A DNA stretch of 56,162 nucleotides from an archaeon (GCA_043812455.1 JBDRMB010000015.1:1-56162), one strand, 5' to 3'. Numbered from the stretch's first letter, positions 1,555 to 37,982 are shown. Translations and numbers: made by a program. The notes: generated by a model not told the origin, from the sequence alone.

Positions 1555-1630
1555 TTTTTTTTTATTTTCTTTTAAGTTTGTTAGTTCTGAGATTTTTCTT
1601 ACCGTTTCTAAATAATAATCTAAAAAGGGC

Positions 1631-1744
1631 ATGTCCGAAATAGAAAACATTTGTATACTGGGGCACGGCGCGATTATAAATTTCCTTTGTAAATTTATGC
1701 GCCTCATTTGGCGCCAGTATACAAAATCAAGTTATTCCGGACAT
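1631..1744 (+). repeat. Long imperfect intergenic hairpin containing copy 1 of a conserved structured motif
   Basis: Nested arms ATGTCCG/CGGACAT, TTTGTATACTGG/CCAGTATACAAA, GGCGC/GCGCC, ATAAATTT/AAATTTAT; core nearly identical to 34164-34241 (minus strand). Confidence 0.8.
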
Positions 1745-1796
1745 ATACATCTAAAAAATAAAATATATAAAGGGTAGAATATTACTAGCTTAAATA

Positions 1797-4700
1797 ATGT
1801 TAAAAAAAGGTGTGGTGTTATTAGTAACGTTTATTCTTTTAGTAAGCACAGTCTCTGCAGTTGACCTTGACCAAGTTTCTGATTATGCTGAACAGTATGA
1901 AGATGGTACTTTAAGTTATTTGAAATTTAAGACTTATATGTATTCTATCGAAAAACAATTCTATGATGAACTGGATGATAGCAGACAAGAATTTTATCTA
2001 GAAGATGATAAGGTCAATGAAAAAGATTCTCGTTTAAATGATGAGATTAGAGAGTTAGGCAAAGATGCTGAACAAGCCTTCATGGAAGGCGACATGGAAG
2101 AATTACAATCCATTATTGAGCAGCTTATTGAAAAATTTGAAGAACAAGGTGATGATAAAGCAGTAGAACTCTTAAAAGAACTTAGTGAAGCTGCCGCGAA
2201 TGAAGATTATGATAAAATTGAAGATTTAGCTCAAAAGTTGCCTAAAGATAAGTTTGGTGGTGATGATAAAGATGGTTATCGCATGGATGGTTGGGACATT
2301 GAAGTTGTAGAAGAAATTTTTGGTGAACCTACTTGGTACGAATACCGTGTTTGGGTAGAGAATGAAAATCAAGACATTTTCCTTGACGAACCAGTTCCAA
2401 GGTTTGAAAAAAGATTGTTTGATGGTGAAGAAATTAAAATTACATTAAATGCCTGGCCGAACATGATCAAAGATGGTGAGGATTACATTTTATTTTACCA
2501 TATCGGTTTGGAAACTAGGATCAAACAAGGAGAAGAATTAGATGTCCAAGCAATAATAAGTTATATGGAAGAAAAAACTGAGGCATACCAGTCAGGAGAT
2601 TTATCATTACAAGAATTTGCTCAAGAAGCTGCTTTACAAGAACGAGCATTTCATCAATACTTATGGGATAATAAGGAAGATTGTGAAGATTTATTTTCTG
2701 GAGTTTTAGATGAAGAAGAAAATTCTGACGTTGTTATAATTGAAGGATTGTTAGCAGAAAATAAAAATTTCTTTGCCAGAATTAACCTTCAACACGAAAT
2801 TAATTCAGAATGGGACAATTTTAATTTCTGGGTGCATATTGAAAGCCGAGAACGTAACGATGATTGGGATTCTCCGGAAGATGATTATAATTCTGAAGAT
2901 ATGTTCGGCAAATCTGCAGATGATATTTGGGAAGAATTTTCTGAAGACTTTGTTGAAATGATGGAAGATGTTGTAGGTGCTGATTCTGCAAGTGAAGCTA
3001 ACAAAGCGTTCTTTTCTCAGGAACGTCGACTTAACCATCTTTTGGGAGAACTTAACTGGAGAGCAAACGAAGAGAAAGGTATTACTGTTGATGAACTGGA
3101 AGACGATTTGTACGATTTGATTAAAGAAGTTGCTACTGATGTTAATAAGGAACGAATGGAAAAAACTCGGTACAGAACTTATCTTATCAAAGAAACTGTC
3201 CAGCAAACTAATACTTGGTGTCGAAGTGAAGACAAGGAATGTGATTCTGATGAATATTGTAAAGATGCTGAATGTGTTTCTGCCAAAGGTGGTAATGAAG
3301 TTTGTGAGAATGGTAAAGATGATGACAATGATGGTTATTGGGATTGTGAAGATCCTGACTGTAATTGTAAAGGAGATGATGGCAGGAAAGGTTGGTTTGA
3401 TGATAATGATGATAATGATGATTGGGACCATGATAACGATGATGGCTCTTATGAAGAAAGTGAATGTAAAGATGGTTGTGAAGATGAATGTCCTGGAGCG
3501 GACGGGACTGATTGTATAAACGACCAATGTAAATGTTATTATGAAAATCATTCAGATGATGACGATGATGATTGGGATGATGATTCTGGTAGTGATGATA
3601 ATTCTGGTGATGATAGTTCCGGCGAAGATGATCAAAGTGATGATAGTGGCAGTGGAGAAGCTGATGATTCTGGACAAGATGATGACAGTTCAGGAGAAGA
3701 TTCTGGCAGTGACGATTCTGGTGGTGACGATAGTTCTGATAATAGTGGTGATGATGGAGGAAGTGATAACTCTGGTGGTGATAGCGGTTCAGATGATGGT
3801 GGTTCTTCAGATTCAATTAGCGGTTCTGCAGTTGACGTGTTCTCTGAACAGGATAAAAAAGGAATTAACATGTTCAAACTTTGGTGGAACGTAGCTAAGA
3901 TTTCTACTTATTCAATTACAGGTTCTGCTGTAAACGTTTTTGATGATGTTGGTGCATCAGAAGATGGAGAAGAAAGTAATGATGAACCTGCAGAAGAACC
4001 AGTAGAGGAACCTCAAGAAGATAATTCTAATGAAGAAGAAACAGTGGAAGAGCCTGTAGAAGAAACTCCTGAAGATAATCAAAAAGAAAGTGAAGGAACT
4101 GATGATTCAGAGCAAGAAGACGGTTCTGATAATGAAGAAAGTGATGACGAAGAAGTAAATGAAGATTGGGATGAAGACAAAGATAATAATGATAAAGATA
4201 ATGATTATAATTGGTTTGATGATGTAGATGATTGGAGCAATCCTTGTGAAGACCAATGTCAAGAATGTTGGAAATGTGATTGGGAAACTGAAGGTGATCA
4301 ATGTAATGAATATTGTATCCCATGTAATTTATGTCAGTATGAAGAAGGCGATTATGAATGTCATGATAACCAACAATTTAACGAAGAATTTGCGTATTGT
4401 GAATGTGATGAAGGTTATAGTGACTGTGACGGAGATTGGGAAAACGGTTGTGAATTAGAAGGATGGTGTGAAAGCTGTCAAGAAGATAGTGACTGTGCAC
4501 CAGCCAGGTGTGGAGAAGATCCAAGAAGAATAATTACTTTCACTTGTGAACAAGGCGAAGGCTGGGAAGAAGATAAAGAAGTTTTAGAATTGGGTGCAGA
4601 ATGTAACGTTTTAAGTGACGGAACTAAAGAAGCTGGTTTTTGGATTGGTGGCTGGGGCGAAGAATTACAAGATTTTGAAAAGTATAAACAAGAAGAACAT

Positions 4701-5618
4701 CAAAAGGGCGAGGAAGATTGGTGTAAAAAGGAACTGGAATGGTTAACTGAAGAGCGATTAATGATTCAGGAATCTTTTAATGATGAATTTATTGCCTGGT
4801 TCTTTAACGAGTTTGTTGATGATAATCCTACCGAGTTTGAAGATCATATGCGAATGGTACACAGTTTACACAGAATATTAATGGAAAATACTGACCGTAC
4901 CGCTTGGTCATTAGAATGTTTAGGAGAATCAGAATTTCCAGAAGAGTACCAACCAATCCAAGTAAGTTATGAAAGTGTTTATGGTGAAATTGAAATCTGG
5001 GAAGAGTTTAAAGTAACTGACCATTTTAGTGAAACTGAAATTAATGTTCTCAATCCGTACATGAAAATTTGGATTTTTCCACCAAAAGAATTTATTGTTG
5101 AAAAAATGAAAGAAGAGTTTGGCGGTCCGAAAGGTCCACCACCGCACGAGATTGCAGAAATCAAAGAGAACAAAGTTATCATGAAGAAAATTAACAAAAT
5201 CAGTAAACGCTTTGATGATGGTGCAGAAATTAAACTCCAAGTAGTTGACAATGGCGAAGTTCTGTTCCAGAATTTAATGAAGATTAATCCTGATATAATC
5301 CTGCGAATGCAAAGTATTGATGAAAGTTATTCAGGGTCGATTGATGCTACTGTAAGTGTAGAGATGGATTTCTTATACGAGATGATGAGTACTATTGCTA
5401 AAGAGGTTGAAGGTGGACATGTGGAGGGTCCATGGTGGGAAGAGCGCAGTGATTATGAACGTGGTGGTGTTGAAGAAGCATGGATTGCGATAAAAGTTTT
5501 AGGTAACATTATTGTAGCTGTAACCAATGGTGAGATTGATGTTGAGCCAGACAGTAGAACTGACGATATTGTATTCTCTTTGAAAGAAATAGTTACTATG
5601 ATGTCAATGGGTGGTTAG
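1797..5618 (+). CDS. Large secreted, highly acidic, Cys-rich surface protein
   Basis: Signal peptide MLKKGVVLLVTFILLVSTVSA; D/S/G and E/P low-complexity linkers; Ca-binding-like Cys motifs EVCENGKDDDNDGYWDCEDPDC and GYSDCDGDWENGCE. Confidence 0.8.
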   Translation: MLKKGVVLLVTFILLVSTVSAVDLDQVSDYAEQYEDGTLSYLKFKTYMYSIEKQFYDELDDSRQEFYLEDDKVNEKDSRLNDEIRELGKDAEQAFMEGDMEELQSIIEQLIEKFEEQGDDKAVELLKELSEAAANEDYDKIEDLAQKLPKDKFGGDDKDGYRMDGWDIEVVEEIFGEPTWYEYRVWVENENQDIFLDEPVPRFEKRLFDGEEIKITLNAWPNMIKDGEDYILFYHIGLETRIKQGEELDVQAIISYMEEKTEAYQSGDLSLQEFAQEAALQERAFHQYLWDNKEDCEDLFSGVLDEEENSDVVIIEGLLAENKNFFARINLQHEINSEWDNFNFWVHIESRERNDDWDSPEDDYNSEDMFGKSADDIWEEFSEDFVEMMEDVVGADSASEANKAFFSQERRLNHLLGELNWRANEEKGITVDELEDDLYDLIKEVATDVNKERMEKTRYRTYLIKETVQQTNTWCRSEDKECDSDEYCKDAECVSAKGGNEVCENGKDDDNDGYWDCEDPDCNCKGDDGRKGWFDDNDDNDDWDHDNDDGSYEESECKDGCEDECPGADGTDCINDQCKCYYENHSDDDDDDWDDDSGSDDNSGDDSSGEDDQSDDSGSGEADDSGQDDDSSGEDSGSDDSGGDDSSDNSGDDGGSDNSGGDSGSDDGGSSDSISGSAVDVFSEQDKKGINMFKLWWNVAKISTYSITGSAVNVFDDVGASEDGEESNDEPAEEPVEEPQEDNSNEEETVEEPVEETPEDNQKESEGTDDSEQEDGSDNEESDDEEVNEDWDEDKDNNDKDNDYNWFDDVDDWSNPCEDQCQECWKCDWETEGDQCNEYCIPCNLCQYEEGDYECHDNQQFNEEFAYCECDEGYSDCDGDWENGCELEGWCESCQEDSDCAPARCGEDPRRIITFTCEQGEGWEEDKEVLELGAECNVLSDGTKEAGFWIGGWGEELQDFEKYKQEEHQKGEEDWCKKELEWLTEERLMIQESFNDEFIAWFFNEFVDDNPTEFEDHMRMVHSLHRILMENTDRTAWSLECLGESEFPEEYQPIQVSYESVYGEIEIWEEFKVTDHFSETEINVLNPYMKIWIFPPKEFIVEKMKEEFGGPKGPPPHEIAEIKENKVIMKKINKISKRFDDGAEIKLQVVDNGEVLFQNLMKINPDIILRMQSIDESYSGSIDATVSVEMDFLYEMMSTIAKEVEGGHVEGPWWEERSDYERGGVEEAWIAIKVLGNIIVAVTNGEIDVEPDSRTDDIVFSLKEIVTMMSMGG

Positions 5619-34163: not shown

Positions 34164-34241
34164 GCAAGAGTACTGGCGCCAATGGAGGCGCACGAGTGAA
34201 CATAGTGAGCTCGTAATCGCGCCGTGCTCCAGTACTCTTGC
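34164..34241 (-). repeat. Copy 2 of the conserved structured non-coding motif
   Basis: Minus strand GCAAGAGTACTGGAGCACGGCGCGATTACGAG...CTCGTGCGCCTCCATTGGCGCCAGTACTCTTGC with a 13-bp outer stem. Confidence 0.8.
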
Positions 34242-34304: not shown

Positions 34305-37300
34305 ATGATTAAAGGTCAAGTGGTTTCTGGAGATTTCGGTAAGATTGCTATGCGTGTCAAGCAAGACCAAAATGTTGAATTGGGAGAATTGTTAGTTATT
34401 CAAAACAATCAAAGTGGACCGAATGAACTTTTTATTCTGCAAGTTTATGATCTTGTCTACGCTTCTCAAATTAGTCAGCAGAACCTTGAACTAGTCTCTG
34501 GGATGAACTTGGAAGAAGATTCTAATTTTCAGTTGATGGACAGAAATCTAAGAAACTATCAAATAGCATTACTCAAACCAGTACTTAACGTAACGCAGAA
34601 AGAAGGTCAGAACCAAACAAAACAAGTGAGTAACACTTGTAAAAAATTGCCTAATTTCTTTTCAACCGTTCGGGCTGTACACAAAGAAGATTTACAGTTT
34701 ATCACCAGACCAAAAAATCCTTTTTATCTCGGAAAATTGAGGAGTGGCAGCCAGGAACTTGACTTAGAGATCTTTTTGTCAGGCAAAGAAGTATTCTCAC
34801 ATCATGTTTTAATCCCAGCATCTACAGGAAAAGGTAAGAGTTTGGATGAAAATGAAGAAGTGCTGATTAAACAAAATGATAATTTTTCAATTAAAACCAT
34901 TGGGGAAATTGTTAATAACCATAATTTTTCGGATCCAGAAATGTGGGCCATGAGTATGAATCCAAAAAATTATTCCATTTGTTTTAAAAAAGTAACTAAT
35001 TTTGTTAAACATAAAGCCCCCTCTTTCATGTACTTAGTGACTACTGAAAGTGGTCGTGAGATTATGGTAACTAAAGATCATAATTTATACGTTTTAAGAA
35101 ATGGCCATCTAATGCTTTTGAAGACTCAAGATCTCTCAAATAATGACCATTTACCTTTACCTTTAAAGATTGATACAAATGGAGATTTAAAAGAATTAAA
35201 TTTATTTGAACTGTTAGAAAGACAGAAAAAAATTTATGTATTATATGATAAAAAAATTGTAAAGAAGCTTAAGTCTAAAAAGGAATGCATAAAGATTTTG
35301 TCAAAATATTTTAATCAACCATTACAAAAATACAATGATTTTGTAACCAAAAAAAATAAAATTAAAATTACTCTTATCAGAGAATTATTAGATAATGAAT
35401 TATCTTATGAAGAATTAAGAACTATTAAATTAACAGATCAACATTTTAGTTTTAAATTAAATGCGATTTTGCCATTAACAAAAGAATTTTTGCAATTAAT
35501 AGGATATTATATTGCAGAAGGTTACTGTTCAGATGAGAATAGCTTCAAAATAAGCTGTTCGGAAAAACCTGGACAAGAATTGTTAAATAACATATTTAAA
35601 AAACTTGGCTTAAAATATTTCTGGATTAAGAAAAAAGAGAAAAATATGGATGTTGGTGTTTCTTCTTCCATATTCACAAAGATATTAAAAGAGATCGGAG
35701 TCGGAAGGGTGTCTGGAGATAAAAGATTACCATTTTTTTTCATGAATCTGTCAAATGAAAATTTAGGAATTCTTCTTAAAACTTACTTTGAAGGAGATGG
35801 TGGAGTCAATAAGGAAATAATTATGAAAAAAAGAAATTTTAATATTTCAACAACCACAAAATCAAAGAAACTTGCAAGCGATATATGTTTTGCTTTATAC
35901 AGATATGGGATCTTCAGTAGATGTAAAAAACTTTGGAAAAGAGCCACTAATACAAATCACAAAGGCAATTGGTACTATTGTATTAAAATCTCTGGGAAAT
36001 CAGATATAGTAACATTTTTGTCTGAAATCGGCTTTCAATTTTCAAGGAAAAATGATGTTTTGAAAGATAAGTTAGATTATAAAGAAAATACGAATGTAGA
36101 TTTAATTCCGTGTGGTTCCGAAATTGTGAAAAAAATTAGATTATCTCTAAGATTAAGTCAAGGAGATTTAGCTAAATTGTCTAATTGTTCAAAAAGTATT
36201 ATTTCTTTAATAGAATTAGGAAAAAGAAAACCTAGTAGATATATGACTGCGATATTGGTTAAGGTATTTAGAAAGCAATTATTAAAATTAGATCAATCTT
36301 TGTTTGATAAATTAATTGTTTTTTCATATTCTCCAAGTTCCGAAAAGATAGTTGAGTTAATTAATAAAGCAAGAAAAAAACAAAAATTAACACTTTTTGA
36401 ACTTGGAAAAAAATCTGGTCTTTATAAAAACGCCTCAAAACATTACATTGAAAATGATCTAAGTAGAATCTTAGAAACAAAAAAAGTAAAAAACTCTCCA
36501 AAAATTTATGCCTTGGGACAATTTCTATCAATCAATTCAAAAGGAAAGAATTTGTCTAAATTTGTATCTCTTTTTGAGTTTAATTTTAATGGTTGGAGTG
36601 AAGTTGTTAGAAGTGCTCTTTTTATGTTAAATTTTCCTAATCAAGCTATGCAAAAGGAGAAACAAAATTTGGGTTATTATGCTAGAGAATTAAAGAAAGG
36701 TAAACAGATCCAACTTAAAAGCCTTAGAAAACTTGCAAAATTGTCATCAGAATATTATTTAAAAATAATAGAGGTTGAACTCCTAGTTTCTATTTTAGAA
36801 AATCAACTAAATTTTAGATGGGATAAAATAAAAGAAGTGAAGAAAATAAAGTATGATAAAAAATATGTTTATGATCTAACTATAAAAGATAATAAAACAT
36901 TTCTTGCCGGTCATGGAGGATTATTTGTCCATAATAGCAATTTAATGAGCACTATTCTGTGGGATTGTCATCCGCAAGATTTTGTAGGAATGCTTGTCCT
37001 CGATCCGCACGATGAATATTATGGTAGGGTTGGTCTAGGATTAAAAGATCATCCCTGTAAAGAAGATTTAGTGTATTACACACCAAGTACTCCACCGCCA
37101 GGTACAAAGACGTTAAAAATTAATCTTAGATCTCTGAAGCCTGAACATTTTCAAGGTGCAATTGCATTAACTGATCCTCAGCAGCAATGCTTGCATGCTT
37201 ATCATCGAATGTTTCAGCAACATTGGATAAAGGCAATCTTAGAAGAACGGAAGATTGAAGGAGTAAGTTTCCATCCAGATACTGTTGCTGTTGTGAAACG

Positions 37301-37982
37301 GAAATTAATTTCTTTATTACAGATAGAGTTAAGTAACGGACAGATGATCTGTCAGGGTATCTTTGATGAAGTTGCTGGAGAAAATACTGTCAGAGAAATC
37401 TGTAAAGAGCTTGAGCAAAGCAAAACAGTAATCATTGACACCAGTTACTTTTCTGGAGCGTTAGAGATTATGATTGGCAGCATTATCGCTAGTGAAGCTT
37501 TGAAATTGTACAAATACTATAAGCGACAAGGTCTTTTAGAACAGAAGCCAGTAATTAGCATTGTTTTAGAAGAAGCTCCTCGTGTGTTAGGCAAAAAAGT
37601 TTTGGAGCAAGGTACTAACATTTTCGATACTATTGCTCGTGAAGGCCGAAAATTTAAAGTTGGTTTAGTGGCAATTACACAATTGCCGAGCGAAATTCCT
37701 AAAAATATTTTAGCTAACATGAATACTAAAATTATTCTGGGGATAGAGATGGGTTCTGAACGGCAGGCAGTGATAGAATCTTCTGCTCAGGATTTAAGTC
37801 AAGATTCACGTAACATTGCTAGTTTGGACAAAGGTGAAGCTTTGATAACAAGTACATTTACTAGATTTGCAGTACCAATCAAGATCCCTTACTTTCCAGA
37901 GTTTGTTAAAGGTCAGAATGCAAAAAGAATTGCAGAAACAAATTCAGGAGTAGAAAACAGTTTTCCGGGTGTTGGAATATAG
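34305..37982 (+). CDS. herA: HerA-like ATPase (HAS barrel + FtsK/HerA ATPase) containing an intein
   Basis: [13 protein letters not shown]|[30 protein letters not shown]; spliced product about 526 aa. Confidence 0.88.
34839..36935 (+). mobile_element. Intein (699 aa) with LAGLIDADG homing endonuclease and inserted HTH-XRE segments
   Basis: Starts SLDENEEV; block B TKDH; LIGYYIAEG and [10 protein letters not shown]; block F VYDLTI; ends VHN followed by Ser. Confidence 0.93.

Follow-up and report, generated by a model that had tools for sequence, protein, structure and literature searches.

The conserved structured motif that occurs twice in the window (the whole archaeal contig of 56,162 nt analysed here) is very probably the core of a family of DDE-type non-autonomous transposons (MITEs) in DPANN archaea, and thus represents selfish DNA and not a stand-alone RNA gene. 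The original prediction, made from the sequence, had left three options for the motif: an ncRNA or ribozyme, a protein-binding element, or a REP-like single-stranded DNA mobile element. Among these, the mobile element came closest to our results, but the REP/RAYT-like kind was wrong, because copy 1 was enclosed by terminal inverted repeats (TIRs) and a target-site duplication (TSD), which are the signature of a DDE transposase. The window is contig C15 of the source genome, G000, which comprises 1.14 Mb in 44 contigs.

Direct reading of the window located both predicted copies, at 1650-1725 on the plus strand and at 34164-34241 on the minus strand. The 5' block TACTGG(G/A)GCACGGCGCGATTA was identical between the copies at 20/21 positions and the 3' block TGCGCCTC(AT/CA)TTGGCGCCAGTA at 20/22 positions, while the outer stems (TTTGTA.. 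and GCAAGAG..) and the apical stems were unlike in sequence and paired in both copies, as had been predicted. The 22-nt pattern of the 3' block, with one N and at most three mismatches allowed, was found twice in the window and had no match in the dinucleotide shuffles (0/100). The 14-mer GCACGGCGCGATTA had exactly two occurrences in the window, and its shuffle control, which also allowed up to three mismatches, was weaker (mean 0.47, with two or more matches in 9/100 shuffles). The RNA fold z-scores were -4.8 and -5.8 for copies 1 and 2, respectively, and those of their reverse strands were about equal (-4.9 and -6.6). The parts of the core hairpin of copy 1, together with the surrounding element, are listed in Table 1. 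A tRNA or tRNA-like gene was rejected, since ARAGORN reported 0 tRNA or tmRNA in the window and the continuous terminal stem of 13 bp is incompatible with a cloverleaf.

Table 1. Coordinates in the 56,162-nt window of the two core copies, of the parts of copy 1 and of the element around it.
Feature	Position	Strand	Basis or remark
Complete MITE, long type (copy 1, L017), 122 bp	1627..1748	+	alignment of 8 long copies in the genome
Left target-site duplication ATCTAAAAA, 9 bp	1618..1626	.	read directly; script; exact 8-mer repeat confirmed
Right target-site duplication ATCTAAAAA, 9 bp	1749..1757	.	read directly; script; exact 8-mer repeat confirmed
Left terminal inverted repeat GGGCATGTCCGAAATAG	1627..1643	+	aligned with DDE_Tnp_1 IS ends
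Right terminal inverted repeat, reverse complement GTATATGTCCGGAATAA	1732..1748	-	12/17 identical to left
Core hairpin, copy 1	1650..1725	+	RNA fold, family covariation, column conservation
Copy 1 P1	1650-1661 with 1714-1725	+	
Copy 1 GC:GC pair step	1663-1664 with 1711-1712	+	
Copy 1 P2	1667-1671 with 1699-1703	+	
Copy 1 bulge GATT	1672-1675	+	
Copy 1 P3	1676-1683 with 1691-1698	+	
Copy 1 conserved 3' internal loop TCATTTG	1704-1710	+	
Predicted TATA-like box TATATAAA	1764..1771	+	15 nt past the MITE end, outside the element; promoter inferred from position
Copy 2, short-type core, P1 GCAAGAGTACTGG/CCAGTACTCTTGC	34164..34241	-	model score 97.1 bits

Copy 1 formed the centre of a 122-bp unit. 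The TSD on its two sides was perfect, with arms of 21 and 21 nt as measured by script, and the TIRs were imperfect (12/17 identities between GGGCATGTCCGAAATAG and GTATATGTCCGGAATAA). As single-stranded DNA, the unit folded into one long hairpin on either strand, with z = -5.9 and -6.1. In G000, eight long copies were aligned with a mean column identity of 88%, and about 21 extra conserved bases per side in these copies made up the outer inverted repeat GGCCATGTCCGGAATAG ... TATTCCGGACACAGCC. All of the long copies (8/8) were flanked by a 9-bp direct repeat, the sequence of which was different at each copy; seven of these duplications were detected by script and the eighth, at L016, was recognized by eye with one mismatch. 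IS903-type elements, which belong to the IS5/IS4 superfamily, make 9-bp duplications. The presence of TIRs and a TSD, the absence of a gene and the dispersal of the copies identified the unit around copy 1 as a MITE, and copy 1 is therefore the non-coding core of an element that was brought in by DDE-type cut-and-paste or copy-in transposition. A small protein encoded by a 48-aa frame across copy 1, with its ATG inside the left TIR, was rejected because of the indels and the loop insertions of variable length in the family.

No allele lacking the 122-bp unit was found in the DNA contigs of three metagenome runs (X1-X3), which showed the filled site or a break at the MITE. In G001, a core-negative genome of the same genus, the orthologous spacer of copy 1 was too diverged to be aligned upstream of the promoter. 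A derivative of the long MITE of 80 bp was present in G000 (C19:12056-12136), in which both arms and P1 were kept and P2, P3 and the loops were gone; this is consistent with slippage across the hairpin. Additionally, a contig in run X1 had, relative to copy 1, a 44-nt skip matching the deletion in this derivative. A solo TIR-like site at C21:3664 of G000 was rejected as an insertion sequence (IS), its neighbours being ordinary genes.

The family was widespread in related genomes. The 14-mer GCACGGCGCGATTA with at most one mismatch occurred at 10 places in G000. A covariance model, one of the checks proposed with the original prediction, was built from 10 G000 copies with only P1 and the apical stem set as paired, and it recovered 10 strong copies (95-107 bits, on 8 contigs) together with 3 weaker relatives in this genome. 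Model matches were found in 14/36 other genomes of the same family, with 1-12 per genome, and in 0/24 genomes that each represented another family of the order, these counts being lower bounds because 76 first-look candidates were scored per genome. An exhaustive pattern search gave 0 copies in G001, G002, G004 and G005 and 7 in G012. When prokaryotes were scanned with the pattern at one genome per species, at least 80 loci were obtained, and 36 passed the model among the matches listed. The model-passing loci among the matches listed came only from records titled Woesearchaeota or Nanoarchaeota, with some third-party assemblies under another archaeal label included in the 36. None of the non-archaeal loci among the matches listed, all bacterial pattern matches, passed the model (0/44), and the single pattern match in viral contigs failed it as well. 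In the literature searched on MITEs and archaeal IS, which included the MITE census (PMC11602168) and the archaeal IS census (PMC13343696), no description of the core hairpin was found; the supplements of the two censuses may list such elements, and the former mentions a MITE-dense Woesearchaea genome.

Within one assembly, the core copies on different contigs lay nearly all on the same strand, with 7 forward and 0 reverse in G012 (from the exhaustive pattern search), 6/6 in G032, 5/5 in G019 and 11/12 in G034. Contig orientation is expected to be arbitrary, and the contigs of G000 showed no common orientation. Within contigs, neighbouring copies shared their orientation in 15 cases against 6 by hand count.

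Marks of mobility were found well beyond the window. Across the genomes, 81 elements were collected with their flanks, and an exact 8-mer direct repeat at a symmetric distance from the core was present in 32/81, compared with 2.1 on average and 6 at most in 200 control trials that combined left and right flanks taken from different elements. The arms of the elements fell into several classes. Arms of ~21 nt began with GG..TGTCC(A/G)GAA; those of ~5-6 nt consisted of GTACGTATTTAGTT or GTAAGT..., with P1 itself forming part of the end; those of ~24-26 nt were of the type G(A/G)T..GTCAAGTT; a further class had GGCTAATATGAAAC; and arms of ~46-49 nt belonged to composites, in which one core was situated inside the apical loop of another. 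The composite MITEs were ~175 bp long (L033:1474-1609, L081, L082, L092 and L095) and were built of two related cores on opposite strands, one of which was enclosed in the apical loop of the other (CTGCGTGCCGGCG.. type), the whole unit being flanked by a single duplication. The composite form was shared by at least three genera and is thus propagated as a unit.

To which transposases the arms correspond was indicated by the ends of IS in the same and related genomes. Four matches to DDE_Tnp_1 (PF01609) were present in G000. The IS on contig C9 encoded a transposase of 280 aa (Pfam E = 9e-19) and had the ends TGGGTATGTCCCAAG, which were identical to the window MITE arm GGGCATGTCCGAAA at only ~11/14 positions. 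An IS in G022 with the ends GGCTCTGTCCAGAA and an 8-bp duplication aligned with the MITE GGTCTGTCCAGAAT of G016. Taken over the DDE_Tnp_1 IS ends and the MITE arms, TGTCC was invariant and up to 12-13 contiguous positions were identical. The arms flanking copy 1 thus resemble the ends of IS, a finding that the original prediction had named as counting against an undescribed non-coding motif. From the resemblance of the copy 1 ends to those of DDE_Tnp_1 (IS4/IS5-superfamily) IS, such IS in the same or related genomes would supply the transposase in trans. The window itself contained a partial gene of an rve-family transposase (integrase core and HTH) at 1-789 on the minus strand, which ran off the contig end; no relation of this gene to the MITE arms was seen.

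A second class of MITEs had the same core but different ends, GTACGTATTTAGTT, and 8-bp duplications. Elements of the IS66 family were located in G000 on the small contigs C4 (about 1705-3110) and C12 (Pfam E = 5e-36), and a long scan of this genome with mismatches for GTAAGT-type ends yielded the ends of the C4 element. This element carried 13-bp ends GTACGTAAATAGT on both sides and a single transposase ORF of 461 aa (DDE_Tnp_IS66), and its ends were 13/15 identical to the ends GTACGTATTTAGTTA of the short-armed MITEs. Copy 1 shares the core with the MITEs that have IS66-family ends but is without ends of the GTACGTATTTAGTT type. One and the same core is therefore combined with two kinds of MITE ends, which match the unrelated IS families DDE_Tnp_1 (IS4/IS5-like) and IS66-like, and its occurrence with both end types makes the core a module that is independent of transposase-specific ends. 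PF01609 was detected in 5/15 core-positive and 10/22 core-negative genomes and IS66 in 3/15 and 1/22, respectively, so that the presence of these IS did not follow that of the core; such co-occurrence counts are weak either way, since repeats are often lost from MAGs.

The link to an HUH or RAYT transposase that the original prediction had suggested was not borne out. An element of the REP/PATE kind, mobilised as single-stranded DNA by a Y1 (HUH) transposase (RAYT or IS200/IS605 type), with the DDE arms being secondary, would agree with a hairpin that has conserved bulged or unpaired bases, as in the ends of IS608, and with the two short copies without TSD or TIR that were both preceded by AAC (n = 2). 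Y1_Tnp genes were indeed present in G000 and in 13/40 relatives, but Y1 (PF01797) was found in 3/15 core-positive against 9/22 core-negative genomes, which showed no association, and in G019, where a Y1 gene lay 1.4 kb from a core copy, this copy was bounded by TIRs of its own and flanked by the duplication CTAAAATAG (9 bp). The GTAG/CGTC head, named among the tags of REPs in PMC3733652, was absent, and the copies numbered ~10 per genome and not hundreds. We regard this explanation as exceedingly improbable beside that of a DDE-type MITE family.

Compared with known systems, the window family was similar to IS4/IS5-superfamily-derived MITEs and to the archaeal MITEs treated in PMC11602168 in its length of ~120 bp, the lack of coding sequence, the TIRs resembling those of co-resident DDE_Tnp_1 IS, the 9-bp TSD, the dispersed intergenic copies and the folding into one long hairpin. 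It differed from the IS4/IS5-derived MITEs in its asymmetric, GC-rich and covarying hairpin centre with conserved unpaired bases, in a core common to MITEs with the ends of another IS family, and in a near-fixed distance to start codons. ERIC, Correia and REP/BIME elements are also short intergenic imperfect palindromes in many copies, which form DNA or RNA hairpins and often lie by promoters or terminators. REPs, however, are 20-40 bp long and linked to RAYT (Y1) transposases, whereas the window family had no Y1 association, and the ERIC and Correia elements, which are bacterial, were unrelated to it in sequence. Like the core, integron attC sites are folded single-strand DNA hairpins whose conservation lies in the structure and in a few extrahelical bases, not in the sequence, and whose terminal loop is variable. 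The attC sites contain R''/R' core sites (RYYYAAC/GTTRRRY) and lie in cassette arrays beside intI. An attC site was rejected for the window family because GTTRRRY/RYYYAAC was absent from the stem ends by reading and the copies were dispersed on many contigs, and the TIRs and TSD indicate DDE transposition.

The structure of the core was analyzed in an alignment of 74 matches with E <= 1e-5, corresponding to 73 distinct rows. In the stacked model, four helices followed one another, namely P1, the two-pair GC:GC step, P2 and, after the 4-nt bulge, P3. Of 1729 cells, 95% were paired, and both sides changed in 22/25 pairs; none of the observed measures was reached in any shuffle (0/500), and slid controls were 32-51% paired. 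P1 and P3 lean towards the model because the alignment was fitted to them. P2, which like the GC step was unpaired in the search model, still covaried, with the variants GGCGC/GCGCC, GGCAC/GTGCC, GGCCC/GGGCC, GGGGC/GCCCC and GCCAC/GTGGC; its pair 26-142 was GC in 39 cases, AU in 25, CG in 3, GU in 1 and other in 1. Selection at the level of structure, as proposed originally, or concerted evolution thus keeps the helices paired. The proposal that GCGCC could switch between two partners found weak support: the 5' GGCGC partner covaried, and in the helix with the second GGCGC, a possible partner, two of the four pairs had 15 and 11 cells without pairing. A three-way junction given by RNAalifold was rejected, since its mini hairpin 20-26 was unpaired in 31/73 sequences, whereas P2 of the stacked model covaried.

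The best conserved positions of the core were unpaired bases, including GCAC before P2 (72-74/74), CTC after P2 (68/74) and TTGGC. Conservation of the single-stranded parts (GCAC; CTC.(A/T)TTGGC) exceeded that of the stems, a difference for which a purely structural role does not account. Extra hairpins were confined to the apical loop and the 3' internal loop.

The pattern of mismatches bears on whether the constraint acts on DNA or on RNA. In the four helices (n = 1754), the mismatch cells consisted of 21 G.T, the wobble of the model strand, 31 A.C, the wobble of the other strand, and 56 others. Wobble pairs were neither enriched nor strand-biased, a comparison that is descriptive only because the copies are not independent. 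Structural RNAs usually show enriched and strand-biased wobble pairs. The rarity of wobble pairs on both strands suggests that DNA and not RNA is under constraint, and the DNA folds of both strands were equally good. Most likely, the constraint acts on DNA, and what it preserves would be an extruded hairpin or cruciform, or the symmetry of a palindrome.

A functional RNA riding on the MITEs, which may be a small ncRNA or ribozyme family or a cis-acting hairpin such as a two-way terminator or stabiliser, appears highly unlikely, although several observations would agree with it. The strong covariation of the four helices and the limitation of hairpin insertions to defined loops are among them, but wobble pairs as rare as other mismatches, without strand asymmetry (21 against 31 against 56), do not fit. 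By eye, a TATA-like box was often seen at 15-25 nt before the left end of the MITE, from which transcription could enter the element, and the short copy on C37 of G000 was 15-16 nt from ORFs on both sides, so that it would be co-transcribed; the orientation relative to the genes, however, was not fixed. When RNA was folded freely to minimum energy, the reverse strand had more G.U pairs (139 against 71) and was slightly more stable, in 49/81 copies against 28, which makes an RNA read from that strand conceivable, but by z-score both strands folded alike. With Rfam, a check proposed with the original prediction, the whole window gave 0 matches at the gathering threshold; in E-value mode, the region 1550-1850 gave 4 matches, all far under gathering, and the best of these scores near copy 1 were those of RUF1 (22.1 against 70 bits) and GA-cis (20.1 against 34.7). 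All families, ribozymes included, were below threshold. In the one metatranscriptome with contigs from this locus (X8), these covered only 1284-1477, inside the neighbouring cyclophilin gene, which does not speak against transcription of the motif. Finally, the TIRs and TSD account for the multiplication of the element without an RNA function. The rare wobble pairs on both strands and the variable orientation relative to genes thus speak against the predicted ncRNA or ribozyme and leave a DNA element as the preferred reading.

Copy 2 differed from copy 1 in its surroundings. Neither a TIR nor a TSD was recognisable around it by script and by the direct-repeat test, and its sole inverted repeat was the P1 stem. 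It was located in the spacer between the divergent starts of a HerA-like ATPase gene (34305, +) and the gene for ribosomal protein L35Ae (ATG 34114-34112, -), at 63 and 49 nt from the two start codons. Its only close paralogue, at C37:32651-32730 of G000, was 89% identical with one compensated pair; a P1 of 13 bp was present in both, and arms and duplication were detected in neither. Without TIR and TSD, the two are assigned to the family by core homology. P1 sequences related to that of copy 2 lacked clear ends in G032, and in G019 they belonged to a MITE that had arms and was flanked by 9-bp duplications. The orthologous spacer of copy 2 in G001 was similar in length and unrelated in sequence, and an orthologue of the C37 locus was absent from this genome. 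Most likely, copy 2 is a family member that is old or has been truncated, at the usual promoter-edge position. The neighbouring HerA-like ATPase gene (DUF87; window 34305-37982, +) was interrupted by an intein that contains LAGLIDADG homing-endonuclease and HTH domains.

The position of the elements relative to genes was strongly biased. The end of the copy 1 MITE was 48 nt from the ATG (1797) of the downstream gene (1797-5618, +), which encodes a predicted secreted protein of 1273 aa with abundant acidic- and Cys-rich repeats and without a Pfam match. For copy 2, a TATA-like TTTATAAA was situated at 34146-34139, 17 nt past the stem end. A TATA-like box in the same orientation as the downstream gene, as predicted, was therefore found for the two window copies but did not extend to an orientation rule of the family. 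A census based on a crude ORF-based gene call (82 rows, with one composite counted twice) gave 34 divergent and 6 convergent spacers, 3 positions inside ORFs and 4 at contig edges, and in the tandem spacers 20 cores were co-oriented and 15 anti-oriented with the genes. The promoter-side bias is strong, and an orientation rule is not clear. The distance from the core end to the start codon pointing away from it had a median of 68 nt, and 45/106 values were within 50-70 nt, while the distances on the stop-codon side were broad (median 36.5 nt). When the ends were defined by the duplications, the distance from the MITE end to the start codon was 39-49 nt in 9/20 elements of the IS4/5-like class, 42-46 nt in 3/10 of the IS66-like class and 44-52 nt in 3/4 of a third class, so that MITEs with IS4/5-like and IS66-like ends had a common mode of ~45 nt. 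This placement at the promoter edge in either orientation suggests target choice or strong selection.

These positions also bear on the explanation that the core is a cis-regulatory DNA site used by the host and spread by the MITEs, to which a transcription factor, a chromatin protein or a promoter-associated factor would bind. The protein would then recognize the conserved unpaired bases, on the upstream border of core promoters. The conservation of loop and bulge sequences above the stems, the excess of divergent over convergent intergenic regions, the preferred distance to start codons with its mode shared by both end types, and the retention of the core across MITE classes with different ends would all agree with such a site. 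The neighbours of the window copies, however, were unrelated in kind (the secreted protein on the one hand, L35Ae and the HerA-like ATPase on the other), and the position at the promoter edge could stem from the target choice of the transposase or from purifying selection in compact genomes. Moreover, G001 and many other members of the archaeal family are without the core, which shows that it is not an essential regulator. A host-used site is therefore considered unlikely.

What the hairpin may do for the MITEs is suggested by their size and by the conserved bases. An element of ~100-180 bp would be too short to loop as duplex DNA, and the conserved unpaired bases speak for a sequence-specific partner. 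The GC-rich asymmetric hairpin could possibly join the ends of the element in one synaptic complex or bind a factor of transposition or targeting, a reading that we hold tentatively and as something less than an even chance. A more specific version appears doubtful at present: the hairpin may be a portable cis-acting DNA cassette that has been swapped among MITEs of IS4/IS5-like and IS66-like transposase families, with the cassette and not the transposase giving the shared function. Such a function might be the juxtaposition of the ends of elements that are too short to loop, or the tethering of the transposition complex to a host factor bound at the promoter. Tethering would explain why the edge of BRE/TATA, ~45 nt before the start codon, is occupied by elements with different ends.

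Three features set the family apart from an ordinary MITE. The core, with its covarying helices and the conserved bases outside them, has been retained in different genera; it occurs with ends of two IS families that are unrelated to each other; and its position at the upstream promoter edge is near-fixed in either orientation. For annotation, masking of the family is advisable, so that its repeats are not called as novel ncRNA. Should the core indeed bring the element ends into synapsis or direct insertion to promoters, competence for transposition or the choice of target would be conferred in cis by a module that does not depend on the transposase. That would be a rare case, with a bearing on how the compact genomes of DPANN archaea tolerate mobile DNA.
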